DNA from: a virus
Taxonomy: Duplodnaviria > Caudoviricetes
Direction: 5' to 3' (one strand)
Virus record (IMG/VR): IMGVR_UViG_3300021960_000065
Location: 2,565-66,564 of that record
Length of the DNA stretch: 64,000 nucleotides
In this document: piece after piece, positions 43,306-63,120 of the stretch
How positions within the stretch are numbered: position 1 is the first letter of the stretch
How the letters are laid out: every line of letters starts with the position of its first letter
The notes under the pieces: generated by a model
The model's input: the letters and a program-made list of their open reading frames with translations, nothing else
Told to the model about the DNA's origin: nothing
Database searches by the model: none
Position numbers and translations under genes: made by a program

Positions 43306-43322
43306 AGACTCCCTCCGAACCA

Positions 43323-43336: not shown

Positions 43337-43358
43337 TATTCAAAATGGTTTCCCCCCC

Positions 43359-48207: not shown

Positions 48208-49718
48208 AAGCCCTCCAATTCAAAGTCCTCATCAAAAATGCGTGGTTGAATGAAGGGTTGTCCTCTCAAATTAGGGGGCATAATCCTGTCCCGAATTTGA
48301 CGGGCATTGATTGCACCCTTTGCCCGTTCCACCAATTCACGCATTTGACCCATGTTGAATTGTTCTATTCCATCGTCAGCCATTTCTTGCGTCATGGTGA
48401 CAGGTCTTGCTCGGTTTGGCATCACGGGATTGATTTGTGTTCCTTTGGGAACGGACATTGACATTTGACCCCTCACAGGATAACGAGCATCATGTGAATG
48501 ATGCCACTGTTGCGCCCTTTGTTGCTCATTTGGCATGAAATTGTCCACAGCGATATTGGTCTTGGGGTCAATTCCCATTTCACGCAGCCCACGATCCAAC
48601 GCACGCATAGAAGCCAATCCCGCAGGTGAGGCGAGTGCTTCTTCTATTCGCCCGGTGTTTTCCAAAAGCGAACCCATTGTGTTCAAACCAAGCCCCATGC
48701 CCCTGAAAAGTGGGTTCACATCAACCATTGGGGCTTGGCCCAATGCACTTATTTTGCCCGAAGTCACGGGCATAGTGTTTTGCCCCTTTTCTCGCAATTC
48801 GTCAGCATATTCCAAATAATTAGGAACACCGCCGCCGTATTGAACCATTTGCGGGTAATAGAACGAATAATTCTCTAATCGGTTTCGCAATTCATTGGGT
48901 AAAGGCATACGCCCCGCATGTTGTTTGGCGTTATTGAGCAACCTTTGCACTGCATAAAGAGGAATTTCGTTGTGTTCAAGAAATTCTTCGGGTGAAGAGG
49001 ATATGCCTTGTTCCGCCAACGCCTCCCACCATTCATCGTCATCGTCATAATCATCTCTTCGCAACCCCACACTCTCAGGTGTTTCATACCCCAAGCGTGT
49101 AGCGAATTCTGTTGGGTCTTGTTCCAATTGCTCTAAATGTTGTATTGCGGATGTAATAGGGATTCTCCCCAATGTTTCAATGCCCAATTCGGGTGGTATT
49201 TCACGCTGAAATGGCCCTGCATCAGCCATGAGGTGCGGTTGATACCACATATTGTAAGTGAAATCATCCCGCCCTATTTGCTTTTGAATGGCGTTCCACC
49301 CTGCCTCAAAAGCATCCTCCGATGCGGTGAACATACCACCAAACGATTCGGATGAACAGGCATCCCATTCATTTTGAAGTCGTTTCAAATCTTCAACCAA
49401 AGTGAATCCGTCTGCTGACCTTGTTCTATCCGCAACCCAAGGTTGAGCGATCCACTCTTCCAATTCTTTTTGTAATTCCTCGCATGGTTGTTCAATGATG
49501 ATTTCAATATCATCCCATGAGGCTTTTCCAAAATGCTTCCTCAACACCTCACGAAATTTCATTCGTGCTTCTTCACAACATTTGTCGCCACCCATATCGG
49601 CTTGAACGGCATCCTCAGCCTCAACGGTGATTTCAGGGTCATACATTGACGGCTCATTCACATTAGCGGGGTGTGTGAAAATACGGGGTTGCCCCTGTGG
49701 TCTTTCAAGCCCAACCAT
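48204..49718 (-). CDS. Protein with internal tag and GNAT-like C-terminal domain
   Basis: AFEAGWNAIQK|Q; VDVNPLFRGMGLG (acetyl-CoA motif A). Confidence 0.6.
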   Translation of the reverse strand: MVGLERPQGQPRIFTHPANVNEPSMYDPEITVEAEDAVQADMGGDKCCEEARMKFREVLRKHFGKASWDDIEIIIEQPCEELQKELEEWIAQPWVADRTRSADGFTLVEDLKRLQNEWDACSSESFGGMFTASEDAFEAGWNAIQKQIGRDDFTYNMWYQPHLMADAGPFQREIPPELGIETLGRIPITSAIQHLEQLEQDPTEFATRLGYETPESVGLRRDDYDDDDEWWEALAEQGISSSPEEFLEHNEIPLYAVQRLLNNAKQHAGRMPLPNELRNRLENYSFYYPQMVQYGGGVPNYLEYADELREKGQNTMPVTSGKISALGQAPMVDVNPLFRGMGLGLNTMGSLLENTGRIEEALASPAGLASMRALDRGLREMGIDPKTNIAVDNFMPNEQQRAQQWHHSHDARYPVRGQMSMSVPKGTQINPVMPNRARPVTMTQEMADDGIEQFNMGQMRELVERAKGAINARQIRDRIMPPNLRGQPFIQPRIFDEDFELEGL

Positions 49719-49720: not shown

Positions 49721-50782
49721 TTATTGCCCCCTATTCAACAATTGCCAAATGATTTCCATTTCCTCGTTTGATATGCTTGGGTTGTCGTGATCCAAATAGG
49801 TGATGTTTGACCCTCGCCTAAAGCAATTGCGACACTTTAGGCTGTTGGTGAGTGGGTCAATGACCTTATCACATTTGGCGGGGTTGCCGGGCAAAGAAGC
49901 AGGGCAAACAGAAGCACCCTCCACCACATTGTCATAATTGGTGAAATCAATTGCGGGGTGTTTGCCCAATTCTCTCAAGGGTCGTGACAAATTGTTGAAG
50001 TCCGACTTACCGGGTAATGATACCTTGACCGCCAAATTTTCAGGGAAGGCATCATCCTCCCAACCCCTCGCATCCAAAAATTGCTGAATAAAGGGTATTT
50101 GGCGTGTTGAAAGCCACCCATTGACTGATGGGTTTTCTTCCATGACATTGGATATGAGAGCCAATTCACCCGCCCCCATTAAGTCGCCCGCTGCCTTGAA
50201 ACGCACTACGGGTTGGTCTTTTCTTGAACCTCTTTCAAGCATAGCCGATGGAGTCAAATTGTGAGCAACACCACTTCCAAACGCTTCAGGGTTGTTCAAC
50301 AATTTGTCCAAATTGTTCCAAATTCGTGCTTGGGGACTGTTCAAAGCATATGTTCCTTGGCACGCATAACAATGTCCACAAGCAGTGTTGGGGTCATTGG
50401 GTGTTGAATAAACACAGGCTCTTGGCGGAGTGTCAAAGAATGAAGGGCCGGGCATTTTTCGTGTTTTGCTATACGGGGCGAATTCTCTTGGCTTGAGTCC
50501 CGCATCCGCCCCCGTCAAAGAATCCTGCACTTCATCCCATTCGGGTATTGGGACATTGGCTTCAAGTGGGTAATCCACCACTCTTGGTTGCCCGTTGCTA
50601 CGCAAATAGGCATCAACGATTTGTGGGTTGTTGATTATCCATTCGGTAATGTCCATAGACCTATTCGCTTTTGGGTCAGGCAATTTGCCTCCATAGCGTT
50701 TTTCCCACCAAAACATATCGTCGGGATCGCCTAACGCTTTGATGAGCAGATGGCCCAACGACATGGTTAAGGCATCCGCCAT
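49721..50782 (-). CDS. Gp88-like Cys-cluster (radical-SAM-related) protein, probable start MADAL
   Basis: AC....ACGHCYA, VRFKAAGDL, WLSTR, CP...C...CRNCF. Confidence 0.65.
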   Translation of the reverse strand: MADALTMSLGHLLIKALGDPDDMFWWEKRYGGKLPDPKANRSMDITEWIINNPQIVDAYLRSNGQPRVVDYPLEANVPIPEWDEVQDSLTGADAGLKPREFAPYSKTRKMPGPSFFDTPPRACVYSTPNDPNTACGHCYACQGTYALNSPQARIWNNLDKLLNNPEAFGSGVAHNLTPSAMLERGSRKDQPVVRFKAAGDLMGAGELALISNVMEENPSVNGWLSTRQIPFIQQFLDARGWEDDAFPENLAVKVSLPGKSDFNNLSRPLRELGKHPAIDFTNYDNVVEGASVCPASLPGNPAKCDKVIDPLTNSLKCRNCFRRGSNITYLDHDNPSISNEEMEIIWQLLNRGQ

Positions 50783-50843
50783 GTGTTTTGCACGCCTCTT
50801 CAATTGAAAATCCTTTTTGTTAAGGTTGTCAACCATCACAGGG

Positions 50844-50851
50844 TTAATATG
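50844..50851 (+). promoter_or_regulatory. TATA-like element TTAATATG upstream of the thermosome gene
   Basis: About 25-30 nt before ATG 50874 in a divergent intergenic region. Confidence 0.45.
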
Positions 50852-50873
50852 CTTGGTTTGTGTGGCGGTGAAC

Positions 50874-52445
50874 ATGATGCCCAACGGTCAAGCACCCGTA
50901 TTCATTTTGCGTGAAGGAACAGAAAGAAGTCATGGTCGTGTAGCCCAATCCAACAATATCGCTGCGGCACGAGCCGTTGCCGATGCTGTGCGTTCAACGC
51001 TTGGGCCGAAGGGCATGGACAAAATGCTCGTTGATGAGGGCGGTGATGTCATCATCACAAACGATGGGGCTACAATCCTTCGTGAAATGGACATTGAACA
51101 CCCCGCAGCGAAGATGATTATTGAAGTGTCAAAGACTCAAGAGCAGGAGTGTTATGACGGCACTACAACGGCAGTTATCCTCTCAGGTGAATTGTTGAAG
51201 AAGTCGGAGGAATTGATTTCACAAAACATCCACCCAACCACCATTTGCGACACATTCCGTAAAGTCGGAACGGAATTGAATGCGATGATTGACGACTTGG
51301 CGTTTGACGGTGATGCTGATGCTCTTTTGAGCGTGGCTCAAACCTCGCTCACGGGCAAATCCGCAGGTTCAATCAAGGAATTCTTGGGTCGCATTTGCGT
51401 TGATGCTGTCGCACGCCTCTCAGCGAGTGGTCGTGTGGACTTGAATGAAATCATGGTCGTCAAGGCTGTCGGTGGCGAGGCTATTGACAGTCGCTTGGTT
51501 TCATCAGTGGTTCTTGACAAAGAACGCTGTCACCCCAATATGCCCATTTCAGTCACCTCACCGAAGGTTTTGCTTTACAACAATTCCCTGATGGTGCAAA
51601 CCACTGAAATGGATGCCAACATCCAAATCACCGACCCCAATCAAATCACCGCATTCCTTGAGCAAGAAGAGGAATTCCTTCGCAACCTCGTTAATGACAT
51701 TGTGTCAAGCGGTGCAAAGGTGGTCGTTTGCCAAAAGGAAATTGATGATTTGGCAAAGCATTACCTTGCCAAAGCGGGTGTTCTCGCTGTTGAAAAAGTC
51801 CCCAAGTCCGACATTGAGGCTTTGTCACGAACCACAGGGGCTTCAATCCTGAATAACCTTGAGGATGTGCGGGCAGGAGAGGATGTTTTGGGCGAATGTG
51901 GCTTGGTTGAGGAAAAGAAAATCGGTGAATTGCCGATGGTTTTCTTTGAAGATCCTGCAAACGCTGTGCCTGTCACTCTCATCCTTCGTGGTGGGACTGT
52001 TCCTTTCGTTGAGGAAATTGAGCGTGCCTTTGACGATGCCGTTGGTGTCGTGTCCGTTGCTCACGAGGATGGCAAAGTGCTAACGGGTGGCGGGTCTGTT
52101 TTCGCTGCGCTTTCGCACAAATTGCACGACTTGGCTCAAACCCAACATGGTCGTGAGCGTATGGCGACTGAGGCGTTTGCCGAAGCGTTGCTTGTTGTTC
52201 CTCGCACGCTCGTGGAGAACGCAGGGCTTGACCCCGTTGATGAAATGATGACACTACGCACCCACCACGCATCAAACGACAACACCGCATACGGTGTTAA
52301 TGTCTTTGAGGGTGGTTTGGCGGATATGGCTGAGGCAGGAGTCTTTGAGCCAAAGCGTGTGGTTGCTCAAGCAATCAAGTCAGCGGTTGAAACCGCTATT
52401 ATGATTCTCCGCATTGACGATGTGATTTCATCAAAGAAGGCTTAG
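50874..52445 (+). CDS. ths: Thermosome subunit (group II chaperonin)
   Basis: [40 protein letters not shown]; helical protrusion present. Confidence 0.97.
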
Positions 52446-53666
52446 AACATCCTTTGGGTGCATTGGTTCAGGCGAAAAGTGCCGTTGCTCAAGCAATTGC
52501 GAAAGGTGTTCACGCGCCATAGGTTTGTCACCAAGCGTGTAGGTATCAATTGACCCTGTTCTGTGCATAGGATCGTAGCGTTGAGTCCATTCCATCAATT
52601 GTGCTTGTTTTTCAGGTGGGACATTCAAATCCCATTTTTCATAAGCATCCATCATGCCCGGTGTGTTCACGAATTGGTTTGTTTCTTGGACATTCATACC
52701 TTGTCGTGTGCTGTCACGATTGACAAACGCCCCAAGGTTCTCCATCAGTCTTTTGTGTGCTGCATCGGCAGCATCACTCCTTGCGTCTTTCAATGACCCC
52801 AAAGTGCCATAATGCTCAATTAGGGCAGGAAGAACCCGTTCACTATACAGCCCTTGACCTTGATAGCCGTCATCAATGTTCGCATGAACAATCGGAATGG
52901 GTTGGTTGGTGTAAGGTTCGGTGAATAGTGAATAGGCCGTTGTGTGAGGTTCATTTTTTTGATATGGTCTTAACTCCCCATCAGCATCCAATCGTGACTC
53001 AATGAATCTGTTAAATTGGGTTGGCAATTGTGGGCGTGGGAGGTCAATAGCGAAACGCCCCACTTCAAATGGCTTAGGGAGGCTTGTGTCAAACAACGCC
53101 CATTGGTCTTTGTTTGGGAGTTTTGCACTCAAAGGACTCCCAACGAGCGAATAACCTGACTCATCGTATTTTTCAATGCCGTCATCCTCATCCTGTGATT
53201 CCATGTGTTGTTGATTCATTTGTCGTATTTGTTCCATCATTTGAGCATAATTCTCGTCAAACATTGGGTTTTCATAAGTCAAAACACCGGGACTACGCTC
53301 GTTTTCCACAGCGTCGGGCCAAATGTCCTGTGGCGGTATGGGTTCGCTTGACACAAATGATGCCTGTTCGCCCACTTGGTTAGGATCGTAGCCTAACATA
53401 GCGAGCATCATAGGACTGTGATCAGCACCGGGTGTCATTCGTGGGTCGCCCTCATCACGCCAAAACGGAATGACGGACACATGGGGGCTTTGCCTGTTGG
53501 TGAATGAAATCCACCTGCGTGCAATTTCAGGGTCAAGGGAGGCATAAACCTCGCCAAAATTGCTACGAATACCTTCACGCAGGATAGGGTCAAGGTTCTC
53601 CGAGGGTGTTGCGTGGTAATACATGGGCATTTTCACAATAGCCCAAGCGGAGTCAAATGCACTCAT
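52431..53666 (-). CDS. Tagged ADP-ribosyltransferase-like (Tpt1/KptA-type) plus GNAT-like two-domain protein
   Basis: AFDSAWAIVK|MP; YYHAT..NL..IL.EGI, VYAS, IPP; linker GIEK|Y; YQGQGLY. Confidence 0.65.
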   Translation of the reverse strand: MSAFDSAWAIVKMPMYYHATPSENLDPILREGIRSNFGEVYASLDPEIARRWISFTNRQSPHVSVIPFWRDEGDPRMTPGADHSPMMLAMLGYDPNQVGEQASFVSSEPIPPQDIWPDAVENERSPGVLTYENPMFDENYAQMMEQIRQMNQQHMESQDEDDGIEKYDESGYSLVGSPLSAKLPNKDQWALFDTSLPKPFEVGRFAIDLPRPQLPTQFNRFIESRLDADGELRPYQKNEPHTTAYSLFTEPYTNQPIPIVHANIDDGYQGQGLYSERVLPALIEHYGTLGSLKDARSDAADAAHKRLMENLGAFVNRDSTRQGMNVQETNQFVNTPGMMDAYEKWDLNVPPEKQAQLMEWTQRYDPMHRTGSIDTYTLGDKPMAREHLSQLLEQRHFSPEPMHPKDVLSLL

Positions 53667-54220
53667 GCTTCATCCCTCCACAAATCATCACGAATGGGCC
53701 AAGAAGGTTCATCCATCCGATTCCACACCGACTGTGGATTTTCACCCAATGCGTTAGTCCAAAGCCCCCTTGACGCATCACTTAGTGAATTGGATGGTGT
53801 GAGGGGTCGTTTCATGTATTCGTTGAGAATCGCCGCCGCCATGTCATACATCGCTGTTCCATATCCCCTTCTTCTAACCTGATGTGGGACAAATGAATGA
53901 TAGGGCCAAAAAGACTGACCTTGTTTTCGTTGTTCACCCGTTGTGAAGATTGACATTGGGAGGTCATTGAGTGCCAATCTCCCCAATACATATTCTTCGG
54001 GATTAGGGTGATGGATTTCAACAAGCATTCGGGTTGCATCATCAATCCTATCATCAAAATTTTCACTATTTGGTGTTGCCGTCATTCGGAATGAATCATT
54101 CGTTATGGGATCTTCAAAGTCAGCATGAAATTCATCACCTTCTCGCCTAAGCGAATTGGGAACAATGGGCATTTTCACGATAGCCCATGCTGAATCAAAC
54201 GCCTCGCAAAATGTCATCAT
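53663..54220 (-). CDS. Tagged GNAT acetyltransferase
   Basis: AFDSAWAIVK|MP; VRRRGYGTAMY. Confidence 0.75.
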   Translation of the reverse strand: MMTFCEAFDSAWAIVKMPIVPNSLRREGDEFHADFEDPITNDSFRMTATPNSENFDDRIDDATRMLVEIHHPNPEEYVLGRLALNDLPMSIFTTGEQRKQGQSFWPYHSFVPHQVRRRGYGTAMYDMAAAILNEYMKRPLTPSNSLSDASRGLWTNALGENPQSVWNRMDEPSWPIRDDLWRDEA

Positions 54221-55004
54221 ACCACCTCCTTAATTGAGAAGCCTTTTCACTAAGTCTGTTCGTGTAGGTGAAAACGGCCTGAATTTCTTCTTTGTTCGCA
54301 TTGTCCCAATCAATGCTATCCTCTAAACGGTCTATTTCAGCCCGCAATTCGTCTATTTTTCCTAACCTTTCCATTTCGCTTTTGGCATTCATTCTCGCAC
54401 GATTGCCCATAATTTGTGCTTGTTCGTAGGGGTCTTTGACTCCTTTAATAGCCGTAGCGATTTCTTTGATTTTTTGCATACGGGGTGTTTGAGGATTTTC
54501 CACATACCCTTCTTCATTGACACTTGGGTGACTATACAAAGCCCTCAATTTAGCCATGAAATTGGGGTGCTTTGTGTCAGCCTCGTGTTCAGCGGTATAT
54601 GCGGGGTATTCGTGTCCTTGTGGCTGTTGTCCGTAAAGACGCTGTAATCGTGGTTCAGCCCAATGCACTGCTTGGTGAGTGGCTTCATGGAGTCCGACAG
54701 CACCCGTGTGATACATCAAATCCTTCTCCTGTTCTTCTGTTAGTGAATCAACACCGTCAGGAAATTGCCTTCCAAAGTGAACAGCAGGGTTTAGCACCGC
54801 ATAACTTGATGGGCGGTCAAAAGGCGGTGGCCCTCCAATCGTCGGTTGTCGCAATATAGCACCTCCACTTGCGTTTTGATTGTCCTCATCAAATGTGAAG
54901 TCCATTGGGCCAAAACCACCCTCGGCATAAGGAAAACCCCTAATGTATTCTGTGTGTGAAATGCTCGCCTTCAACAGCGACCAAACGGTTTCAAACGGGT
55001 TCAT
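54195..55004 (-). CDS. Tagged HExxH zincin-like protein
   Basis: PFETVWSLLK|A; LHEATH...HEYPAYTAE. Confidence 0.65.
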   Translation of the reverse strand: MNPFETVWSLLKASISHTEYIRGFPYAEGGFGPMDFTFDEDNQNASGGAILRQPTIGGPPPFDRPSSYAVLNPAVHFGRQFPDGVDSLTEEQEKDLMYHTGAVGLHEATHQAVHWAEPRLQRLYGQQPQGHEYPAYTAEHEADTKHPNFMAKLRALYSHPSVNEEGYVENPQTPRMQKIKEIATAIKGVKDPYEQAQIMGNRARMNAKSEMERLGKIDELRAEIDRLEDSIDWDNANKEEIQAVFTYTNRLSEKASQLRRWYDDILRGV

Positions 55005-55764
55005 TTTCTTCCACCTCGTCAGTAGCGTAAGTCGCCAAGTAATTGGCGCGAAGCCAATTGTTCAATTCTTGAGGCGTGGTTCTCACCTGCCCCATACCGT
55101 GTAAAATTTTGTGCTGTCGCAACAATTCCCTTTGTTGCTCATCGGTCATGGTTTGTAAATGGCCGAAATCCCACATCATCCGATCTATCCAATCGTAGCG
55201 TTGCATAGAAGCATCACGCCAATTTTTCAAGCGAGTAGCCAATTCATTCAATTCTTCCTCCCCCAACCTTCGCATTGTGTGTGGGGGGACATCTCCTTTA
55301 GTGCGCCATTGAATCGTGTGTTCGGGATAGGCATAGTGTGTCAATTCACCTGAGTCGTATTCATCTCGTTGCCATTTGGGTTCTTTAATCCACTCAGGGG
55401 CATCGGGATGGTTTTCATCAATTTCAAAAATATCTGAACCGTAGGCACGAGCCTGATTGAAAGCACCGAGCATTCCCGCAGGTGCTTGAAGGGTTTCTCT
55501 CTCGGTTGGCCCTGCGGCGTATTTCCAAGTGTCGCCCAACATCATCCGTTCCCAATCCTCTTCGCTGTAATCACGCAAAAATCGTTCTTTGATTTGTTCA
55601 ATGGGCCAATCATAGTCCTCGTTCCTGCGACTGTCATAGACATATTCCTGTAAATCCGCCGCTTCATCGCCAACATTCAAGCCCTCACGCTCAACATCGT
55701 CACCCCAATAAGTGCCGTGATAAAGGGCTTTCATAATAACCCATGCGGAGTCAAAGGCGTTCAT
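54991..55764 (-). CDS. Tagged ADP-ribosyltransferase-like protein (probable start MNAFDSAW)
   Basis: AFDSAWVIMK|A; LYHGT..EGL, ARAYG, IFEID, VPP. Confidence 0.6.
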   Translation of the reverse strand: MNAFDSAWVIMKALYHGTYWGDDVEREGLNVGDEAADLQEYVYDSRRNEDYDWPIEQIKERFLRDYSEEDWERMMLGDTWKYAAGPTERETLQAPAGMLGAFNQARAYGSDIFEIDENHPDAPEWIKEPKWQRDEYDSGELTHYAYPEHTIQWRTKGDVPPHTMRRLGEEELNELATRLKNWRDASMQRYDWIDRMMWDFGHLQTMTDEQQRELLRQHKILHGMGQVRTTPQELNNWLRANYLATYATDEVEENEPV

Positions 55765-56696
55765 CACGCAACCCTCCAATGTAGGTTGTCTTGAAACTCG
55801 CTGAACGCCCCCGTTGGGTCGTTTGCTTCTTCCCACCGTCCGTCAAATTGACGCAATTCTGTCATGGGAATGTCCTGTGCGCTCAAACCTTTCGGCAAAT
55901 CGGGGATAAGACGACCCATGCCGGGAACCAATTCACGCCCAAAGAAAAACGAGGGAGGCACAGCATCACGCCTTCGCCCAAAGGATGCAGGAATACCATA
56001 CCCACCTGTCGCTTTGCGGTGTTCTTCATTCATGTTGTAATCAAAGGATTCGGGGTATTCCTCCGCTAAATGGGGCAATTGAGCATATCTGTTGGAGGTT
56101 AAGCCCATCAAACGCCTCATGTCCTCTCCGTATATCATGTCCTCATCATAATTGAATTGGGGTTTTCGCAATTTGCGATCATAACCACTTGACACCATGT
56201 AAGCGGGAATGTAGGGTGCGCCCATCGTCCTTAACGCTTCAACACGGTGGTTGCCCTCTCCAATGCCCCATCCCGATGGGGTGAAGTGCAATTGGGGGAT
56301 GGCTACATTACCAACAGCATCCAACCCTGCCGCCGCTTTGTCGTAGCGTTTTCTGCCTTCTTCTATTACATCAAGTCCCTTTTCTTCATCAGAACGGCGT
56401 TTCCACCATTCCGAATCACGACCTAACATTCCATGTTCCATTATGCTCTCCATCAATTCTTCAATGCGCTGTTTGCCGTAATCTCCCCCGTAAGTGCTTG
56501 AAGGCAAAACCTCCTGCCAATGCCTCGTGGGGGGCAACATTTCAGTCGGCACAAAATCCAACGGGGATGAAGAACCCGCATACCTGCGTTTGTTCTTACC
56601 TCGTCCACCTAACACTTCATAGAGAGGGGCATAGATTTCCTCCCACATCCCCTCATCAATTTTGATGATTGCCCATGCGGTGTCAAAAGCGGTCAT
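55764..56696 (-). CDS. Tagged ParB/Srx-like protein
   Basis: AFDTAWAIIK|I; IEELMESIMEHG, IGEGNHRVEAL...IPA. Confidence 0.7.
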   Translation of the reverse strand: MTAFDTAWAIIKIDEGMWEEIYAPLYEVLGGRGKNKRRYAGSSSPLDFVPTEMLPPTRHWQEVLPSSTYGGDYGKQRIEELMESIMEHGMLGRDSEWWKRRSDEEKGLDVIEEGRKRYDKAAAGLDAVGNVAIPQLHFTPSGWGIGEGNHRVEALRTMGAPYIPAYMVSSGYDRKLRKPQFNYDEDMIYGEDMRRLMGLTSNRYAQLPHLAEEYPESFDYNMNEEHRKATGGYGIPASFGRRRDAVPPSFFFGRELVPGMGRLIPDLPKGLSAQDIPMTELRQFDGRWEEANDPTGAFSEFQDNLHWRVA

Positions 56697-57412
56697 GCAA
56701 TCACCTCTCCACCAATTTCGCTCATCAGTGTTTCCATATTTGTGTTGGGAAACGCTGCCCCATACGGTGTAATAACGGATAATTCGCCCACGACACGAGA
56801 ATCATCAGGAATGAGCATACGCACACCATGTGACGGATGGTCGTTTTTATCCTGTTGTTGTGTCAAAACGAAGCCACCAAATTTGTTGGGTATTCGCTTA
56901 CCGTCTTTGTCGTAATCGTAGGGCCAATAGGAAGCCAACGGTGCGGGCTGTCCTTCTTGATTAAGCACCACAGGATTGCCACGCTTATCGTATTCAATAT
57001 CGTAATCCATCAAATCCTGTGGATTTGCTTGATTAAAGAGCATTTGATCAATAATCTCACGGCTTGTCATACCCTGCACGAACCCGTGTTTGTTGCGACG
57101 ACCCTCATTCCAAGCCCTCGCTTGATCGTTTCTTTTGATGTTAAATTCAGCAAAGGCATCCATTGGGATGGTGGATGAAGTGGCGAGAGTGGTGTAGTCA
57201 CGCATTTTGCCGTCAGGCTTTCGCAATTTCGCTTGAAGGGACATCATGGGGCGTTCTTTCCAATAATTACGCAGGTTTCGGAATGAACGGATAGGTTGCT
57301 CGCCCTCAAGCAAGGTGTGTTGCTTTTCACCCAACCACCTCTCCCCTTCAGGAGTCATAGTGGGTGCTTCGTAGCCTTTTACCACCAACCACCCGGTGTC
57401 AAACGGGGTCAT
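56693..57412 (-). CDS. Tagged hypothetical protein
   Basis: PFDTGWLVVK|G. Confidence 0.65.
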   Translation of the reverse strand: MTPFDTGWLVVKGYEAPTMTPEGERWLGEKQHTLLEGEQPIRSFRNLRNYWKERPMMSLQAKLRKPDGKMRDYTTLATSSTIPMDAFAEFNIKRNDQARAWNEGRRNKHGFVQGMTSREIIDQMLFNQANPQDLMDYDIEYDKRGNPVVLNQEGQPAPLASYWPYDYDKDGKRIPNKFGGFVLTQQQDKNDHPSHGVRMLIPDDSRVVGELSVITPYGAAFPNTNMETLMSEIGGEVIA

Positions 57413-57518
57413 TTTTCTTTACCCCCGTCACCATGCACTTCTTGGTCTTAGCCTCACGCTCATCCAAACGCTTGCTGTGATAGTCAAACCACTCATCAAG
57501 CAATTTACAGCGCGTCAT
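57399..57518 (-). CDS. Small hypothetical ORF (39 aa)
   Basis: ATGA overlap with the lyase stop; MTRCKLLDEWFDYH...; fills the gap. Confidence 0.4.
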   Translation of the reverse strand: MTRCKLLDEWFDYHSKRLDEREAKTKKCMVTGVKKNDPV

Positions 57519-58402
57519 AGCCTCACCACCGACCTGATACGCCCTGTGGCTTCTTGCATTTTACCTTTAATGACGGAGGTAAGAGTGGGGTAGCGAATCT
57601 GTTTGGCGAATTCCGCCGCCTCTCGCACCGCTTTATCGTTCAAGGGGCAGCGAATGCCCTTGTCCCTGCACCACTTGAGCAGATCCTCAGTCGCCAAATT
57701 CGCACCTGAGTCCTTGACAAAGGGGCAACCCCCCAAACCACCGATGCTTGTGTCAAATTCAAACACACCGTTGAGGTATGCGGTTTCCACATTGGGCATG
57801 AGGTTTTTGCCGTGATGCAAATGCACAGCGAGGTTTTCTGTGTAATCGTTGGCTACATCAATACCCAAAGCGATGTCAAAGGGTTTTGCTGTTCCCGAAG
57901 TGTCGCATAACACGATTTTTTCACCATAGGTGAGTCCTTTTTGCACGACTTCGGCTAATTGTTCAACGCAACCGCCAAATGCCTTTGAAATATACACACG
58001 CACATTTTCACGAGGCACACCCGTCAGCATTTTGTCATAAATTGCTGTGATTGCCTCAAGGTCTTTACCGAAATTTTTCTTGTTGAAATCATCATTAGGG
58101 GACAGCACAATGTTGAATTTGGTCGCCCCAACCGCCTTTGCACGCTCTAAACCCCTGTCATTCATCACCAATACCGAATATGAAACACCGTTGTTCCTGC
58201 GGAGAACCCCCTGCACCACCTCTTCGCCATCAGCCATGTTCGGAACAAGGCGCGGATTGACAAACGAAGCCACTTCAATGTGCTTCACATTTGTCTTTTC
58301 AATGAGGCTGATTAGGTGCAATTTGTCCTCCGTAGCCACGAAATGCGACAGGTTTTGAAGGCCGTCGCGGGGTGCTACCTCAAAAATGGTAATACCCGCC
58401 AT
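57515..58402 (-). CDS. hmgL: Hydroxymethylglutaryl-CoA lyase (DRE-TIM metallolyase)
   Basis: EVAPRDGLQN, IEVASFVNPRLVPNMAD, LCDTSG, VHLH, GGLGGCPF, GANLATEDL. Confidence 0.92.
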   Translation of the reverse strand: MAGITIFEVAPRDGLQNLSHFVATEDKLHLISLIEKTNVKHIEVASFVNPRLVPNMADGEEVVQGVLRRNNGVSYSVLVMNDRGLERAKAVGATKFNIVLSPNDDFNKKNFGKDLEAITAIYDKMLTGVPRENVRVYISKAFGGCVEQLAEVVQKGLTYGEKIVLCDTSGTAKPFDIALGIDVANDYTENLAVHLHHGKNLMPNVETAYLNGVFEFDTSIGGLGGCPFVKDSGANLATEDLLKWCRDKGIRCPLNDKAVREAAEFAKQIRYPTLTSVIKGKMQEATGRIRSVVRL

Positions 58403-58443
58403 GTGCGCTGTGAGGGCGTGACGGCTGAAAAAGTTAGCGGGGG

Positions 58444-58467
58444 TCAGGCGGTGTCAAAGGCGGTCAA
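58444..58467 (-). pseudogene. Orphan tag remnant TTG ACC GCC TTT GAC ACC GCC TGA
   Basis: Nearly identical to the ATGACCGCCTTTGACACCGC leaders at 59587 and 60297, but with TTG start and TGA in place of TGG. Confidence 0.75.
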
Positions 58468-59069
58468 TATATCCCCTCCCTTAGCACAAACGGTGGATGG
58501 CGTTTCATACCTAAAGACATATAGCGTTTGAACCAATCGGAGTCTTTCAATTGATTTTGTAGGCGTTGATCGTAATTTGCGACCATTGAAAGGTGTCGTC
58601 GCCTCATCATATCGGGATCTTCATCGCCTGTGTAAAGTGAATCAACATCGGGATATTTTTCGTTCCCTGTGAAAATCACCCTAAGCATTTCGGGCGGTAT
58701 CGCTTCGGTCACAGAAAAATCGTGATATGTTGGATTGAAATTAAATCCTTCTAAACCTTCTGCTTCATCTGCGATTTCAATTACAACAGGGCTTGAATCG
58801 GGTGTCTGTGAGCCAATGTCCATGTGTGGTTCAAGGTTTCCTATGGCGTAGGCTAAGGCTCTCAATGGCTCTTGAGCCATGAATGCTCGGCTTTCGCCTT
58901 CATAGGGTGTTTCATCCTCTTCCATGTATTCAAAGTCATCCGCGTAATTGCCCTCATCGTGAGCGTGTGGGTTAAGGCCGTGTTGTAGGATTGAAGAGAG
59001 GTTTTTTGACGAAGTGCCGTGATAATACGGCATTTTCAACAAAGCCCAAGCGGTATCAAAGGCGGTCAT
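58464..59069 (-). CDS. Tagged ADP-ribosyltransferase-like protein (Tpt1/KptA-type)
   Basis: AFDTAWALLK|MP; YYHGTSSKNLSSILQHGL, ALAYA, PVVIEI, AIPPE. Confidence 0.75.
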   Translation of the reverse strand: MTAFDTAWALLKMPYYHGTSSKNLSSILQHGLNPHAHDEGNYADDFEYMEEDETPYEGESRAFMAQEPLRALAYAIGNLEPHMDIGSQTPDSSPVVIEIADEAEGLEGFNFNPTYHDFSVTEAIPPEMLRVIFTGNEKYPDVDSLYTGDEDPDMMRRRHLSMVANYDQRLQNQLKDSDWFKRYMSLGMKRHPPFVLREGIY

Positions 59070-59587
59070 GGCACGAAATCCCCCTTATCCTCTTCATCGG
59101 GCCATTCCATGCCAATAGCACGAGCAAAATCGGCTACACTTGGCGATTGTTGATGAGTCCTACGCATAAATTGGCCTTTTCCGCTTTCCATTGGGACATA
59201 ACGACCTCCTGCGTTGAAGATTTCTTCTATCATGTCCTCAAGCCATTTTTCATCCGAAGGCTTAACGCTTCTATGCCTTGACAAAGGCGAACCCACAATT
59301 GCGTTCACTAAAGAGGCTCTTTCCAATTCTCCGAAAACTTCCTCAATGCCAACATCTGTCCCATCTCCCCGTGAAAACCCCCCTCTTGCGATCCACTCTC
59401 CATCTCGCCCATCCCGCATGGCTTCTGCAAAGTCCCCTGTGCGATAATCGGGAAGATATTCACGATGAGGCGCAATTTTTGACCCAACAACCGCTAATTC
59501 AGCATTGGGTGAAAACCAAGAAGGGCGTTTTTGAGGCAGGTTGAAATCCACTTTCAACAAATCCCAAGCGGTGTCAAAGGCGGTCAT
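59066..59587 (-). CDS. Tagged hypothetical protein
   Basis: AFDTAWDLLK|V. Confidence 0.65.
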   Translation of the reverse strand: MTAFDTAWDLLKVDFNLPQKRPSWFSPNAELAVVGSKIAPHREYLPDYRTGDFAEAMRDGRDGEWIARGGFSRGDGTDVGIEEVFGELERASLVNAIVGSPLSRHRSVKPSDEKWLEDMIEEIFNAGGRYVPMESGKGQFMRRTHQQSPSVADFARAIGMEWPDEEDKGDFVP

Positions 59588-60297
59588 GGACTATCCCTCA
59601 CTCTTTCAGCCATCCATTCCTTGATTTTGCGCTGACTGTTGCCATACATCGGCAACACATCCTCCGGGTCAATCGCTCTTGGTGTTATCAATTCGTGCAT
59701 CATTTCGGGAACATCGGCAGGTATTTCAAAGGGTATTTCGGTCATATCAGGTGCGTCAATAGCGAACATTTGGGTATAAGGATCGCGTGTGGGAATGAAT
59801 TGCTCTCCCCCAATAACCCCCCTGTCCCATTGTGCCAAAGGCATATTGAATGCTTCGTATTTTCTTTGGATGTTTTCCTTCAATTCATCCATAAATTGTT
59901 GGTCGTATGGTGTGTCAAAATCAACATTGGCTTCTTCTAAGGCTTGATAAAAATTGCCCATAGCATCCGCTGCAAGCATATTCCCTGCAATCGTTTCATC
60001 ACGGTAAGGTTGGGTGTCAATGATGTAATGCTCTTTGCCGCCCTGAACCCGATTGCGAAATTGATTTAGCAATTGACTCACTGACAATTTGCTATTGGAC
60101 TCAGCACCGATTGGGATTGAAAAAACACCGTGTGGCCTGTTTAGGATTTCGTTGTGCGGAAGGGTGCTTATTGCGGCGTGGTTGTGATTGCCACCCATGC
60201 TTGGATCTATCGGTTCACCAATTGGCACATGACCCCCGTGATATGCGAAACGAGGGACATTTTTCACAATATCCCATGCGGTGTCAAAGGCGGTCAT
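59584..60297 (-). CDS. Tagged protein, possibly ART-like
   Basis: AFDTAWDIVK|N; AYHGG, GVFS, YIID, ELITPRAIDPE. Confidence 0.5.
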   Translation of the reverse strand: MTAFDTAWDIVKNVPRFAYHGGHVPIGEPIDPSMGGNHNHAAISTLPHNEILNRPHGVFSIPIGAESNSKLSVSQLLNQFRNRVQGGKEHYIIDTQPYRDETIAGNMLAADAMGNFYQALEEANVDFDTPYDQQFMDELKENIQRKYEAFNMPLAQWDRGVIGGEQFIPTRDPYTQMFAIDAPDMTEIPFEIPADVPEMMHELITPRAIDPEDVLPMYGNSQRKIKEWMAERVRDSP

Positions 60298-60836
60298 AGG
60301 TCATCCCTCACAAGCCAAGAAGAAGGCCCATATTTCTTCGTTTTGCTTCTCCACAAATTCTTAGCGTCTTGTGTTTGAAAGTCGGAAGGTTCAAGGGTTT
60401 CACCACGCCGATCCAAAATAGAAGCCACCATATCATAAATTGCGGTCATATATCCCCTTCTTCGGTAATCCGAGTCTGTTCCAACCATTGTCGGCTCAAA
60501 AAAGGATTCATTGGTTGGTTTCCGAAAAGCGGCATCTGCCCGATTGTATTTAAGCGGGCGGTTTTCTTCTAAAATCAAGGCGTTTATCTGTTCATTGTCT
60601 TGTCGCCCCCGATCCACAGGTTGAACAATCGCTTCCATAGGCAAACGCTCTCCCGTTTTTGGATCGTCAAAAAGTGCTGAATAATGCGTAAAATCAAATA
60701 AATTTTCAAGAGGAATAGCATTATGTTTAGCCCATTGTTTGTAGCGTTGTTGCCATTCATCCCCTTCACTTTCAATAAGAGAATGGGGAACAATGGGCAT
60801 TTTCACCAAATCCCAAGCGGATTCAAATGCGGTCAT
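60294..60836 (-). CDS. Tagged GNAT acetyltransferase
   Basis: AFESAWDLVK|MP; YRRRGYMTAIY; paralog of 53663..54220. Confidence 0.75.
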   Translation of the reverse strand: MTAFESAWDLVKMPIVPHSLIESEGDEWQQRYKQWAKHNAIPLENLFDFTHYSALFDDPKTGERLPMEAIVQPVDRGRQDNEQINALILEENRPLKYNRADAAFRKPTNESFFEPTMVGTDSDYRRRGYMTAIYDMVASILDRRGETLEPSDFQTQDAKNLWRSKTKKYGPSSWLVRDDL

Positions 60837-61348
60837 GGATTCGGCCTCCCCACCCTGTCGTCACCTGCGTGCTTCTCACGCAACCTCCGCATGAAACCCA
60901 AACCCTGTTCACTCATCATATGAGGTGGCGGTTGATACATTCGCCTGTTTTGATTTTCAGCCAAACGCAAAATCAATTGAATCAAGGCTTCTTGATACCC
61001 GCGCCCCTCATAGCCGGGTTCGGTTTTGATTGAATAGGGATAAATGCCTCTTGGGTCGTCAATGTTGTCACGGTCAATGGAGAGTGAGGTGGGGTGGATA
61101 TAATGTTCAGCCCTCCACATACGATGGCCCATATCATTGGGTTCGTTGTCCGAAATGTGAGCCACACCCAAACCATCAGGACTTAAACGAGCAACAGCAG
61201 GTAAGCGTTCATTTGTTTCGGGGTCTATGAAATCGCCTTCAAATTGATGAAAGGGGAATTGCCCCTGCATGACTGTCCCGACATCACGAATTGAATCCAT
61301 GTCAAGAGGTGCTTTCAACAAAGCCCACGCTTGCCCAAACGCCCCCAT
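60833..61348 (-). CDS. Tagged GNAT acetyltransferase (probable start MGAFGQAW)
   Basis: AFGQAWALLK|A; YEGRGYQEAL. Confidence 0.7.
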   Translation of the reverse strand: MGAFGQAWALLKAPLDMDSIRDVGTVMQGQFPFHQFEGDFIDPETNERLPAVARLSPDGLGVAHISDNEPNDMGHRMWRAEHYIHPTSLSIDRDNIDDPRGIYPYSIKTEPGYEGRGYQEALIQLILRLAENQNRRMYQPPPHMMSEQGLGFMRRLREKHAGDDRVGRPNP

Positions 61349-61387
61349 GCTGTGCGTCAAGGCACATCATGTCAAAAATGTAGCGGA

Positions 61388-62212
61388 TTAGAACAGAACG
61401 CTCGCCTTTTGTTTCTTCTCCCATGACTCCCACGCCGTGATGTCCTCGTCATCAATGGGATTTCCCAATTCTTCAAGCCAATGGTTGTTGAAGCATTTTC
61501 GGCACGAACCACACGAACCCGAAATGTCACCCGTGTTTGTTCGGTTGAGGTTCAATGGACACAAGAAACGAAGGAAATTTTTCTCGTAAATGGGGTCTGT
61601 GAGGTAATAATTATCAAAGAAAAAGAGTGACACTCCGTGATTTTGCGTCAAATCAACAATGTCAGGCTTCTCGCCTTTTTTGCACTGATAGGAAAAGAAA
61701 ATTGGCCGTTGCACCTGAGCCAACGCTTCATCACGCCTCTCCAACGAATGAGCATCAAGACTGAAATGCAAATGGACATTGGGGTGATCCTCAACGAGTG
61801 CGGCCATATCCGCCTTTCGTGTCACGACCCAAAGCACAACATTGGGGTGATTTCGCCCAATGTAATTCACCGCATCAACGGATTCTTCAAATAAATCCCC
61901 GCCACCGTTCCAACGAAGGTAGTCAAGGCCTTGTTTGTGATATTCCTTGACAATATCCTCAGCAAATTGGGATGGACTCTCACGGCAATAATTCATCAGC
62001 CACAATTGTTTGCGGAGGCTGTTATTCCAAGCCGTTCCGCCCGTAGCATAATAGCAGGTTTCAATGCACACCTTTGATGGTCGGCAGGTGTTCGCAATAG
62101 GGAAATTGACAGAAAACCCCGTCACCTTGTTGCCTGATAGCAAAGAGGATGGTCGCTTGTCCGACTCAACCAATTCATTCGTTTTCTTGATGACTTTGGA
62201 CACCCGCTTCAT
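61388..62212 (-). CDS. Gp88-like Cys-cluster protein, untagged
   Basis: TCRPSKVCIETCYYA, LRWNGGGDL, WVVTRK, FSLD, CP...CGSCRKCF. Confidence 0.7.
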   Translation of the reverse strand: MKRVSKVIKKTNELVESDKRPSSLLSGNKVTGFSVNFPIANTCRPSKVCIETCYYATGGTAWNNSLRKQLWLMNYCRESPSQFAEDIVKEYHKQGLDYLRWNGGGDLFEESVDAVNYIGRNHPNVVLWVVTRKADMAALVEDHPNVHLHFSLDAHSLERRDEALAQVQRPIFFSYQCKKGEKPDIVDLTQNHGVSLFFFDNYYLTDPIYEKNFLRFLCPLNLNRTNTGDISGSCGSCRKCFNNHWLEELGNPIDDEDITAWESWEKKQKASVLF

Positions 62213-62222
62213 GTGTTATCCC

Positions 62223-62236
62223 TGTCAGTCCTAACA
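62223..62236. promoter_or_regulatory. Palindromic operator-like site TGTCAG-TC-CTAACA
   Basis: Between a T-rich TATA-like element and ATG 62212; flanked by CC/GG. Confidence 0.45.
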
Positions 62237-62253
62237 GGATGATCCATAAAAGG

Positions 62254-62979
62254 TTAGCGGGATTTTACAACATCCCATGCCGAAGTGAATGCGTCATCGC
62301 TTTTCCATTCGTCACTAAAACCTCGTGGGAAACCGTATTCCTTTCCTTCCCTTTCAGGGGGCGGGACAAGTGATGGTGGTCGCCCCCTTCTTTGAAGTTG
62401 CCTATTCAAAGCCCCTTCCATTTGTGCTGTGATATTGGTGCGTTGTTCGGTGTCGCCTCGGAACGACCTGCGAGCCGCCTCTTCCACCAATTGTCCGTGA
62501 AGTGGATCGTATTCGCCCGTTCCCATGTTTTGTTGAAATTCACTAATGCGAGCCGCCAATTCTTCATCGCTCATGTCAGCCAATGGATTGGGAGGGCGGG
62601 GTGGCATTGGCATCTGTGGTGAAGGGAATGGCTCAAATTCCCCCTCATCCTCTTCCTCAACGATGGGCTTGCCATCGCTATCCAAAGCCCCGTCAATCAA
62701 CATATCCGACACGCACTGCACGCAATACGCACCGCCATTAAATTCGGGGTGATTCTCAATGGGATGTGGACTGTCAATTTCTCCACGATAGCCGGGAGTG
62801 TCATACCCGCCCTGCTCTCCCATGCACGATTCGCACACATCCTGACCGCACTGTTCACAGCCGTATTGTTTGCCATCGGGTATTGGCTCATTACAATACG
62901 AGCATTCAGGGTCGTCGTCATATTTGAGGATTTTACCTTTCATGGCACTATCCCAAGCGATGCGAAATGCCGTAGGCAT
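62254..62979 (-). CDS. Zinc-finger protein with the tag at both ends
   Basis: AFRIAWDSAMK|G ... CSYC, CEQC, CESC, CVQC ... AFTSAWDVVK|SR. Confidence 0.7.
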   Translation of the reverse strand: MPTAFRIAWDSAMKGKILKYDDDPECSYCNEPIPDGKQYGCEQCGQDVCESCMGEQGGYDTPGYRGEIDSPHPIENHPEFNGGAYCVQCVSDMLIDGALDSDGKPIVEEEDEGEFEPFPSPQMPMPPRPPNPLADMSDEELAARISEFQQNMGTGEYDPLHGQLVEEAARRSFRGDTEQRTNITAQMEGALNRQLQRRGRPPSLVPPPEREGKEYGFPRGFSDEWKSDDAFTSAWDVVKSR

Positions 62980-63120
62980 GGTGTGTGGGAGAACATTCTC
63001 CTAAAAAAAAATTTGGCGGAAATTTTGCGATGAACGACTGAGAAGTGTTAGGGATGTGAGGACTGACAAAAAAAATCCTCAAATTTTTTCCGTGTAGCAT
63101 ATGTGGTTAGGGAGGCACGC

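Follow-up and report, generated by a model that had tools for sequence, protein, structure and literature searches.

The DNA analyzed here, referred to as the window, is a stretch of 64,000 nucleotides comprising bases 2565–66564 of one 66,564-bp virus record (IMGVR_UViG_3300021960_000065), and nearly all of its genes are carried by the minus strand. Between positions 52431 and 61348, it contains 12 consecutive minus-strand open reading frames (ORFs), 11 of which start with the same short peptide, hereafter the tag, encoded by a block of DNA termed the leader. This array is convergent with a plus-strand gene for a group II chaperonin, the thermosome (50874–52445; Pfam Cpn60_TCP1, E 6.6e-163), which served as the anchor for retrieving relatives.

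Read in the direction of transcription, the first cassette (60833–61348) begins with MGAFGQAWALLK-AP, is separated from its upstream gene by a gap of 39 nt, and encodes a body that aligns with a GNAT-like family. It is joined through an ATGA overlap to the cassette at 60294–60836, which opens with MTAFESAWDLVK-MP and has a GNAT-like body containing an RRRGYMTA motif. There follow MTAFDTAWDIVK (59584–60297), whose body belongs to family c24, which has no assigned function and has relatives in the related loci L007 and L009; MTAFDTAWDLLK (59066–59587), whose body is a singleton among the compared loci; and MTAFDTAWALLK-MPYYHGT (58464–59069), predicted to adopt an ADP-ribosyltransferase-superfamily fold (Tpt1/KptA- or DarT-like; family c8). 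The latter two form a block that is missing from a variant contig of run X3. Immediately downstream lies a solo minus-strand leader remnant, TTGACCGCCTTTGACACCGCCTGA (58444–58467; TTG...TGA), in which the start and Trp codons are spoiled; it is untranslatable, does not start a gene, and represents a decayed tag start at the point where an untagged HMGL-like gene follows. Its TTGA provides the stop of 58464–59069, and its site coincides with both a break in homology between the window and the relative L001 and the junction of the X3 variant. The remnant is 24 nt long in the window and apparently longer in run X6, and L001 has a deletion flanked by TGACC at this place. The HMGL-like gene itself (57515–58402; pyruvate carboxyltransferase type; Pfam PF00682, E 1.4e-20) is the untagged member within the array.

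Tagged cassettes resume with MTPFDTGWLVVK (56693–57412), which has no assigned function and has orthologues in L001 and L003, and continue with MTAFDTAWAIIK (55764–56696), which displays a weak ParB/Srx-fold resemblance and an invariant E-G-x-H-R; MNAFDSAWVIMK-ALYHGT (54991–55764; family c17); MNPFETVWSLLK (54195–55004), which contains a HEATH (HExxH) string and matched no family or PDB entry; and MMTFCEAFDSAWAIVK-MP (53663–54220), a GNAT-like protein with a five-residue N-terminal extension. The last cassette, MSAFDSAWAIVK-MPMYYHAT (52431–53666), encodes a 411-aa protein of family c16 and is kept beside the thermosome gene in the window, L001, and L003.

The tag shared by the 11 genes occupies a 36-nt block of 12 residues with the pattern M-[T/S/N/G]-[A/P]-F-[D/E/G]-x-[A/G/V]-W-x-[LIV]-[LIVM]-K, in which F and K are invariant across 83 leaders from 10 loci; in a wider consensus, [W/F] occupies residue 8 and the Lys is often followed by [M/A]-P. 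The initial annotation had viewed the array as a row of exchangeable cassettes with shared leader DNA, and its description of the block proved accurate. The pattern ATGACCGCNTTTGANNCCGCNTGG, allowing at most three mismatches, matched 10 times between 53643 and 60836 on the minus strand only, with five exact matches, as opposed to none in 100 dinucleotide shuffles; the solo remnant at 58444–58467 accounts for one of the 10. Similarity ends at the Lys, since the mean pairwise nucleotide identity of the 11 leaders is 0.53–0.83 over nucleotides 0–35 from the ATG, 0.25–0.34 directly past the Lys codon, and 0.22–0.38 upstream of the ATG; the tag is directly followed by M-P in four window genes (52431–53666, 53663–54220, 58464–59069, and 60294–60836), again as described. 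A Shine-Dalgarno-like GGAGG is located 8–14 nt upstream of the leader, within the last codons of the preceding gene.

The joints between neighboring genes are likewise those reported: the overlaps at 60836/60833, 60297/60294, 59587/59584, 59069/59066, 56696/56693, and 53666/53663 are all of the 4-nt ATGA type, and the one at 55764 is a 1-nt TGATG overlap. Two further genes stop at the TGA within the TTTGA of the next leader (55004/54991, the end of the family c17 cassette, and 54220/54195). Across the 83 leaders, the stop of the upstream ORF is overlapped in 68, by 4 nt (ATGA) in 52, by 14 nt (TGA in TTTGA) in 7, by 1 nt in 5, and by 7, 8, or 17 nt in 4; a gap of 1–39 nt precedes 9 leaders, and an upstream ORF was not found for the remaining 6. 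In 54 of the 83, stops are present in both other frames within the first 24 nt, so that an upstream insert in either non-zero frame ends within 14 nt of the next start. These figures fit the proposal that each new gene is automatically tagged and translationally coupled, and the DNA that codes for the tag also acts as a cassette adaptor, which keeps neighbors translationally coupled whatever is inserted. In-frame read-through, in turn, is expected to yield fused proteins with two tags. A second match to the strict pattern occurs in 9 of 150 listed representatives of tagged proteins from the metagenome search described below, of which at least 3 look like unrelated P-L...F strings; P0141 is a real two-tag case, in which the internal ...G-E-P-M-T-A-F-D-T-A-W-S-L-L-K-M-P retains the Met of the second cassette.

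Such an arrangement raises the question of whether the block is an RNA or translation element for ribosome loading or re-initiation, with the peptide as a by-product. The overlaps at 68 of 83 leaders, the GGAGG-like sequences 8–14 nt upstream, and the ACC and TTT codon biases considered below would be accommodated by this explanation, which is nevertheless very improbable: most codons are variable at the third position without a change of amino acid, the motif is also found at C-termini, Rfam gave no match in 50000–64000, and the folds predicted around six leaders showed neither a common hairpin nor unusual stability (z −1.78 to +1.18).

The tag is not confined to the array. A position-weight matrix was derived from the 83 leaders, in which orthologues were included and which are therefore not independent; with this matrix, 15 sites of at least 12 bits were obtained in the 63 window ORFs, at N-terminal, C-terminal, and internal positions, compared with none in 50 shuffles. 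Of the genes described next, 44966–46039, 62254–62979, 32409–34391, and 46039–48204 lie on the minus strand. A 357-aa protein (44966–46039) carries the tag at its C-terminus (...TPFEHGWAVLKC*); a Cys-rich protein (62254–62979) begins and ends with a tag-like peptide (MPTAFRIAWDSAMK... and ...DDAFTSAWDVVKSR*), the C-terminal copy being among the matrix sites; and a 660-aa protein encoded just upstream of the large terminase gene (32409–34391) contains the tag at residues 32–42, numbered according to the longer ORF 32409–34400. These three were recovered by both the matrix and a six-frame search. The six-frame search also revealed an N-terminal variant, MADIDALEAGWDAVIK, in a 721-aa protein (46039–48204) and looser forms at the N-terminus of 39527–40135 and in the interior of 48204–49718. 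Since the tag is also present at C-termini and inside other proteins, its conservation is mainly at the level of the peptide.

First and foremost, the block encodes a peptide tag common to proteins that are not otherwise related. In the family of 55764–56696, the strict pattern is retained in 39 of 45 homologues, with body identity as low as 28%, and the other six mostly have variant tags or are N-terminally truncated or extended. The second residue of the tag was T in 95, S in 16, and N in 10 of 126 representatives whose tag begins at residue 3, a preference explained by the ATGA overlap, which forces a second codon beginning with A. In AlphaFold models of two cargo proteins, the tag forms a separate helix at residues 3–11 ahead of the folded body; in the better model, the pLDDT of this helix is below 50, compared with a mean of 82 for the body.

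Codon usage leads to the same view. The Ala, Leu, Val, and Lys codons of the leaders vary roughly as in bulk genes, and the identity of synonymous codons among leaders is 0.53 within a genome versus 0.44 between lineages, from which it follows that the leader DNA is not homogenized by frequent exchange. The comparison of synonymous divergence suggested by the initial annotation thus turned out against a DNA-level homology block as the main cause of conservation, as most synonymous sites vary. Homogenization of leaders within a genome by gene conversion was considered as well; it is weakly indicated by the same two values, which are confounded by differences in GC content, and was set aside. 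A distinct bias is seen at Phe, which is encoded by TTT in 10 of 10 window leaders versus 53% in bulk genes (p 0.002); TTC would destroy the TTTGA stop, which would account for the bias in the lineage of the window, although leaders of L004, L005, and L013 use TTC despite this rationale.

To compare arrays, 57 loci were fetched by means of the thermosome anchor, of which L001–L014 have thermosomes that are 55–99% identical. In these 14 loci, the left side of the thermosome gene is syntenic, and the other is occupied by an array of up to 14 tagged genes that varies in content, order, and copy number. In contrast, the 43 loci with 36–39% identical thermosomes, which represent other magrovirus groups, have at most one tagged gene within 10 kb. 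The near-duplicates L001 and L002 share a 99% identical thermosome with the window, and their flanks are 87–91% identical; at the DNA level, L001 and the window have only 3 of 11 tagged genes in common (52431–53666, 54991–55764, and part of 56693–57412), in addition to the HMGL-like gene. L003, which is 92–97% identical to the window, is devoid of 55764–56696. Paralogues have expanded inside arrays, with ADP-ribosyltransferase-like (ART-like) genes present three times in L001 and GNAT-like genes three times in L004. In most pairwise comparisons among 10 loci, homology blocks end 0 to +10 or −13 to −24 nt relative to the ATG of a leader. Near-identical arrays were also sought in five contigs with a 95–99% identical capsid protein, none of which contains the thermosome region.

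Three events could be resolved. In the first, 55764–56696 was removed from start codon to start codon in L003, with the crossover in the shared ATGA, upstream of which the sequence has the context of the upstream leader and from codon 2 onward that of the downstream leader; a contig of run X6 repeats this joint (from 55760 to 56693, the shorter side spanning 84 nt). In the second, a run X3 contig departs from the window, to which it is elsewhere more than 99% identical, just past 58466, where its next 11 letters are those found directly upstream of the ATG at 59587, such that gene 59584–60297, with its ATG intact, directly abuts the solo leader, whereas the window has two extra cassettes at this point (58467–59587). 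The two leaders involved are identical over 19 nt, within which the crossover lies, and an X6 joint (58442 to 59551) agrees. The third event occurred outside the array, where 46039–48204 (2.1 kb) is absent from L003 (7315–7333), with the junction in a shared TGATGG; this segment is present in the window, L001, L004, L005, L013, and L014, and the genes flanking the junction begin with M-A-D-I-D-A-L and M-V-D-I-N-A-F. In the independent runs X3–X6, 15 of 21 listed loose ends of contigs are located within the leader ±6 nt, 1 is found 14 nt before the ATG of a leader, and 5 fall in the thermosome gene; joints with a short side of less than 30 nt and contigs matching the leader only were not counted as recombinants.

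Turnover of whole cassettes with junctions at the start of the tag is highly probable in light of these comparisons. The expectation of variable gene content in relatives is borne out, as is that of breakpoints at the leaders, although the best-resolved ones fall mostly at the stop/start overlap and not deeper within the leader. It is an even question whether the leader, or microhomology in it, guides the exchanges or merely marks the joins that are viable. No recombinase or integrase family was detected among the 50 window proteins scanned with Pfam and PHROGs, the record being probably a fragment of a genome of approximately 105 kb.

The same junctions bear on the idea, close to that of the initial annotation, that the 35-bp block is conserved chiefly as a DNA homology site for integrase-free shuffling and that the peptide is incidental. 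Differences in gene content do have junctions that coincide with leaders, one crossover took place inside 19 identical leader bases, paralogues have expanded within arrays (ART-like in L001, GNAT-like in L004), and Thr as ACC and, in some lineages, Phe as TTT are fixed beyond what the amino acid requires; moreover, the PeSL elements of T4-type phages illustrate that short boundary repeats can drive shuffling (PMC2839356). This explanation is nonetheless improbable, given that the same peptide occurs at C-termini and in protein interiors where there is no cassette boundary, that the Ala, Leu, Val, and Lys codons are free with synonymous identities of only 0.53 within and 0.44 between genomes, that the tag is kept through the deep divergence of one cargo family, and that two of the resolved junctions map to the overlap (ATGA or TGATGG) rather than to the block. 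Of the earlier proposal of a homology block for cassette swapping, what stands is a turnover bounded by leaders; the block is chiefly a peptide, and its DNA is not homogenized.

The bodies behind the tag are diverse. When stripped of their tags, the tagged proteins of 16 loci fall into many mutually unrelated BLAST clusters. For family c8, a profile of 9 sequences matched Tpt1/KptA in the PDB (E 1.6e-4 over 24 residues) and, more weakly, DarT, and the model of 58464–59069 (pLDDT 71.5) retrieved exclusively Tpt1/KptA or DarT in the best 20 rows of Foldseek, with KptA at the top (E 2.2e-4) and a TM score of only 0.37–0.41. On this basis, c8 is assigned a predicted ADP-ribosyltransferase-superfamily fold, and its chemistry is left unassigned; in the 9 sequences, His17 is situated in Y-H-G-T and Pro126 is invariant in a conserved P-P-E region, residues that may correspond to catalytic ones. 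Families c12 and c37 (60294–60836, 53663–54220, and 60833–61348) share an R-G-Y-x-x-A motif in 10 sequences, and 60294–60836 matches Acetyltransf_9 with E 1.2e-3 and 19.3 bits, i.e., below the curated cut-off of 25. GNAT families are also the most common Pfam assignments among 149 tagged representatives (11, 5, and 2 members), including Acetyltransf_1 in 11 of the 149 with a best E of 6.6e-5; the others are DUF7002 (4), PARP (3), Tpt1 (2), and NUDIX (1; E 2.6e-21). Two matches of the tag-profile search bear GNAT/RimI names from their sources.

The body of 55764–56696, modeled with a pLDDT of 82, gave sulfiredoxin, Noc, ParB, and SbnI as top rows in Foldseek, yet with E of at least 0.18, and structure comparison by VIA yielded Z values of at most 4.8; together with E147-G148-x-H150-R151, which is invariant in 38 sequences of the family, the model is suggestive of a ParB/Srx-like fold. 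PDB sequence searches with 55764–56696, 52431–53666, 54195–55004, and profile A7 returned nothing significant. The possibility that 54195–55004 is an HExxH metalloprotease was dropped, its sole basis being the HEATH string. Pfam and PHROGs provided no significant family for most cargo bodies, nor for 32409–34391, 46039–48204, and 48204–49718, and the ESM Atlas contained no usable match for 32409–34391 or 48204–49718.

Plain paralogy, i.e., a single diverged family whose N-terminus is its best-conserved part, would explain why the ART-like families c8, c16, and c17 share YHGT or YHAT right behind the tag and why the GNAT-like c12 and c37 align together. It is hardly credible for the array as a whole, where the tag-less bodies form many unrelated BLAST clusters, appear to adopt different folds (ART, GNAT and NUDIX families, and the ParB/Srx-like model), and are encoded by DNA whose similarity is at background exactly past codon 12.

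The distribution of the tag was explored with an exact DNA pattern for M-T-A-F-D-T-A-W, which matched 56 times on 25 IMG/VR contigs (46 loci), typically with several matches to a contig. In 596 Gb of cellular genomes, the same pattern gave 5 isolated matches in unrelated bacteria, where approximately 4 are expected by chance under equal base frequencies; cellular matches being at chance level, the tag characterizes this viral clade, not host cells. A profile built from 65 tag-bearing N-termini, which itself favors P after M/A, found 75 proteins at E ≤1 in a word-indexed search and at least 150 cluster representatives (50% identity) at E ≤1e-3 in an exhaustive search of metagenomes. Among the 150 representatives listed, the tag lies within the first 8 residues in 140, and M-P comes directly after the Lys in 90 and A-P in 31. 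One match, P0199, a repetitive, surface-anchor-type, apparently bacterial protein with N-F-E-K-A-W-D-L-T-K repeats, was treated as a chance look-alike. In G004, a 107-kb genome rated complete, 16 tag sites are present in approximately 99 ORFs, 11 of them in one array. A small family with tag-K-(G/S/A)-N-P-N-x-(R/Q) was noticed in L015 (18573–19043), L036 (~12441), L004 (19516–19992), and L005 (19726–20208); it includes the sole tagged gene near the thermosome in two distant magrovirus-type loci and may be the ancestral tag bearer.

Considering these results together, we propose that the locus is a hypervariable array of tagged cargo, comparable to the capsid-targeting signal (CTS) and internal proteins of T4, in which an address tag is attached to swappable host-modifying enzymes; we give this interpretation a probability of roughly one half. 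Each cassette would be one small gene, consisting of a 12-codon tag that forms an amphipathic helix and an unrelated enzyme body with an ADP-ribosyltransferase fold, a GNAT-like fold, or possibly a ParB/Srx-like fold, or NUDIX in relatives. The tag may bind the cargo to a receptor encoded by the virus, most probably within the capsid as it assembles, and the packaged cargo could then be delivered with the DNA as host-takeover or anti-defense enzymes. Two minus-strand genes are pertinent to this scheme: an HK97-type major capsid protein (19711–20877; Pfam SU10_MCP and Phage_capsid; PHROG major head protein, E 2.3e-50) and an S78-type prohead protease (20889–22217; residues ~14–238) with a long C-terminal extension that is probably a scaffold part and ends in a conserved helix. 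The latter is a candidate tag-processing enzyme, which might remove the tag after the invariant Lys. At the DNA level, ATGA and TTTGA provide the upstream gene with stops in either other frame and maintain coupling, and the block plus GGAGG constitutes a short repeat wherever two genes meet. It is at leader boundaries that cassettes are gained or lost and undergo duplication and reordering, presumably by recombination.

Virion targeting as the specific role of the tag is a tentative assignment and somewhat less probable than the interpretation as a whole, and a number of observations weigh against the proposal. The enzyme types, the prohead protease, the terminal Lys-[M/A]-P, and the flexible helix all fit packaging, but none of them is specific to it; packaging, tag cleavage, and the receptor are things that we infer. 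The matrix scan detected no tag in the capsid protein, the protease/scaffold, or the portal, and HVTV-1, the nearest cultured relative by capsid, has no tag of at least 10 bits in 92,320 of its 102,319 bases, for which reason virion data from HVTV-1 are not transferable. The C-terminally tagged protein, which clusters with GP88-like proteins, and the double-tagged protein are odd as capsid cargo, and a general docking motif would suit such proteins no less than packaging does. The proposal also does not account for the Thr codon: it is ACC at 12 of 12 window leader positions versus 30% in bulk genes, alike in most lineages, and in L013 it is ACC in 8 of 8 versus 21%, with neighboring Ala codons that vary freely. 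As for a recombinational role of the leader, the removal of 55764–56696 and that of 46039–48204 need only 4–6 nt of identity; some of the loose ends in runs X3–X6 surely belong to other tagged genes that match the leader only, and because of these, the loose ends are taken as leader conservation plus forks, not as recombinants; and since the leader is itself the gene boundary, selection for intact genes could give the same junction map. Complex prediction of the tag with the capsid protein or the protease/scaffold, performed with no controls, scored 0.00 and counts neither way.

The observations on placement invite a different destination, in which the tag docks enzymes at a hub other than the capsid, such as the viral thermosome, another viral complex, or a host machine, and the cargo is not packaged. 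A tag that is N-terminal, C-terminal, or internal, and sometimes present twice, is typical of a short linear docking motif, and the tagged proteins include types that would be unexpected as ejected cargo. In addition, the array abuts the thermosome gene, and a Cpn60/TCP1 chaperonin is present in 4 of 5 other array-bearing contigs checked. However, in G004 the array (~15.8–23.1 kb) is 16 kb away from the thermosome gene (39.2–40.7 kb), one array-bearing record with an estimated completeness of 88% has no chaperonin match, and the tag is absent from cellular genomes, so that host proteins do not use it in its present form; we also know of no chaperonin that uses a client tag. Docking at such a hub, for which the neighboring viral thermosome is the foremost candidate, is somewhat less probable than virion targeting and far more probable than the RNA-element or paralogy explanations.

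Bacteriophage T4 packages the ADP-ribosyltransferase Alt, and the cleavage site of T4 leaders follows Glu. According to PMC12373910 and PMC3012670, the T4 internal proteins have in common only an N-terminal capsid-packaging leader, are encoded at variable hot-spots, and are injected with the DNA to inhibit host restriction systems. The present system resembles them in that a short N-terminal peptide is common to unrelated small proteins (11 genes of the window; 83 leaders across 10 loci), in that loci differ between close relatives (3 of 11 tagged genes shared by the window and L001), and in the presence of a prohead protease gene. It differs in belonging to an archaeal virus with an HK97/halovirus-type capsid and an S78 protease, which are not T4-like; in a motif of its own, which ends in Lys and is also C-terminal and internal; and in arrays that are much longer (11–14 genes), with packaging and cleavage being predictions here. 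There is no sign of descent from T4-like viruses, as all 9 capsid matches are archaeal viruses, with no T4 sequence among those compared.

PeSL elements, which are short and conserved and mark boundaries in the genomes of T4-type phages, mediate the insertion, deletion, and replacement of ORFs and form mini-circles; similar elements are also found at T-even internal-protein loci (PMC2839356). The leader is likewise an element at each cassette boundary that bounds insertions and deletions in close relatives and brings expression signals. It is, however, a coding element of 12 codons plus a stop/start overlap, not an intergenic promoter-terminator; no stem-loop was found in the six leaders folded, and the cassettes are co-translated in an operon, not transcriptionally insulated. 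As in integrons, swappable single-gene cassettes that have no promoters of their own follow one another in a single direction and are bounded by a repeated element; the boundary here, however, is a translated tag, not an attC hairpin, and the cassettes share a protein tag. Most genes overlap by 1–14 nt, which leaves no intergenic room for attC; Rfam gave no match in 50000–64000, although no attC-specific search was made. An integrase-free, integron-like system, in which one 36-nt block combines a virion- or hub-loading tag, a stop/restart signal, and a recombination linker, is a possible but doubtful extension; if true, the population would hold an open-ended, rapidly reshuffled arsenal of injected enzymes (ART, GNAT, NUDIX, and nuclease-like).

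Encapsulin cargo peptides are short, are located at either terminus, and send diverse enzymes inside an HK97-fold shell. Parallels in the window are an HK97-fold shell protein and a short address peptide at either terminus; in contrast, the window, which has genes for terminase, portal, and tail, derives from a true virus, binding of the tag to the shell is conjectural, and the tag motif is presumably unrelated to the encapsulin consensus. Giant phages (SPN3US and the phiKZ group) likewise package in the head numerous ejection proteins that are substrates of the prohead protease and enter the host, and the MuF polymorphic toxins similarly combine a conserved N-terminal part with variable C-terminal effector domains. 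Both rely on long propeptides or a whole MuF domain instead of a 12-residue tag and have no coupled cassette array. In terms of known systems, the locus is a CTS/internal-protein-like polymorphic effector locus with PeSL- or integron-like behavior, found in archaeal viruses and not previously described there. The literature searched, including magrovirus papers, contains no description of such a tag array; the annotation tables of PMC11706807, which possibly list GNAT/ART genes, lay outside its coverage.

With respect to its genome context, the record has no terminal repeats, and CheckV rates 59,975 bp as 57% complete in close relatives, which places the full genome at approximately 105 kb and makes the record probably a fragment. 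In addition to the capsid and protease genes, Pfam and PHROGs recognized the large terminase (30962–32353), the portal (27938–29725), a tape-measure-like protein, and two giant Laminin_G_3 proteins, one of which is encoded by a gene of 5.8 kb. The capsid protein matched 9 records of a phage collection, and all 9 are archaeal viruses: 8 are haloarchaeal tailed viruses of the HVTV-1, HCTV-1, and HCTV-5 types (31% identity) and 1 is a Methanofastidiosa virus (26%). The magrovirus capsid protein has likewise been described as halovirus-related in PMC5434244. Similarly, a thermosome, a LamG-like protein of ~6 kb, and a pyruvate-carboxyltransferase-type gene are reported together for magrovirus group A/Apasviridae in PMC11706807. 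Because its thermosome, LamG-like, and HMGL-like genes match that description, the record appears to represent a magrovirus-like tailed archaeal virus of group A/Apasviridae, a placement by gene content and literature and not by phylogeny, and Poseidoniales are the presumed host.

Several further observations concern the tag and its candidate partners. L003 contains at 1170–1880 an extra gene for a 236-aa protein with the tag variant N-R-A-F-E-K-G-W-A-I-S-K, inserted outside the array between two conserved genes at a point corresponding to window 40547–40551. The paralogues 49721–50875 and 61388–62212 match Pfam GP88 and contain Cys motifs that are putatively radical-SAM-like; 44966–46039 falls into the same BLAST cluster with no GP88 match of its own and is the only tagged one of the three. 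Residues 24–40 of the capsid protein, G-Q-N-A-W-A-Y-S-G-T-D-L-L-K-A-D-S-P, are loosely tag-like with an insertion and the same L-L-K-A ending, and they could be a maturation cleavage site; as a relative of the tag, N-A-W-A-Y-x-G-T-D-L-L-K-A-D was given no weight, being conserved in 18 distinct relatives like the whole protein. The last 40 residues of the protease/scaffold contain a helix, I-R-V-P-T-H-E-E-F-x-A-L-G-x-G-L-D-G-W-R-A-L-E-E-L, that is strongly conserved in 47 relatives and is probably the capsid-binding end; its L-D-G-W-R-A-L-E-E-L part was discarded as a counterpart of the tag, given the lack of an in-register alignment.

Other features of the window lie outside the array. Between the portal and protease genes, HVTV-1 (NC_020158.1, 68622–72563) encodes a 1313-aa protein annotated as "zeta toxin", and the unannotated 1120-aa protein of window 22262–25624 occupies the same position. 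By the array, a trio of genes at 41732–44087, syntenic in L001–L012, encodes a Gly/Met-rich low-complexity protein, a 307-aa protein, and a 242-aa protein with a weak Gtr1/RagA GTPase match (E 2.5e-4). The GC-rich, non-coding end at 63100–63600 contains four copies of C-C-A-T-C-A-C-C-G-C-A-C-T-A-A-(A/T) near C-T-C-G-C-C-C-G-C-C-C repeats, is 91% conserved in L001 and L002, and may be an origin or regulatory region.

The viruses that infect Poseidoniales (Marine Group II archaea) abound in the ocean but have not been cultured, and very little is understood of the means by which they take over or disarm their hosts. The 12-residue profile provides a handle on the likely effector repertoire of this viral clade, which amounts to at least 150 protein clusters, most of them with no known family, and the array marks a genomic hot-spot of gene turnover in the arms race between virus and host. 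The combination of stops in both other frames with a restart codon is an instance of coding DNA that doubles as a cassette adaptor. Should the tag prove to be a capsid-targeting signal, we know of no earlier example from an archaeal virus, and it would be usable to load foreign proteins into HK97-type archaeal capsids.

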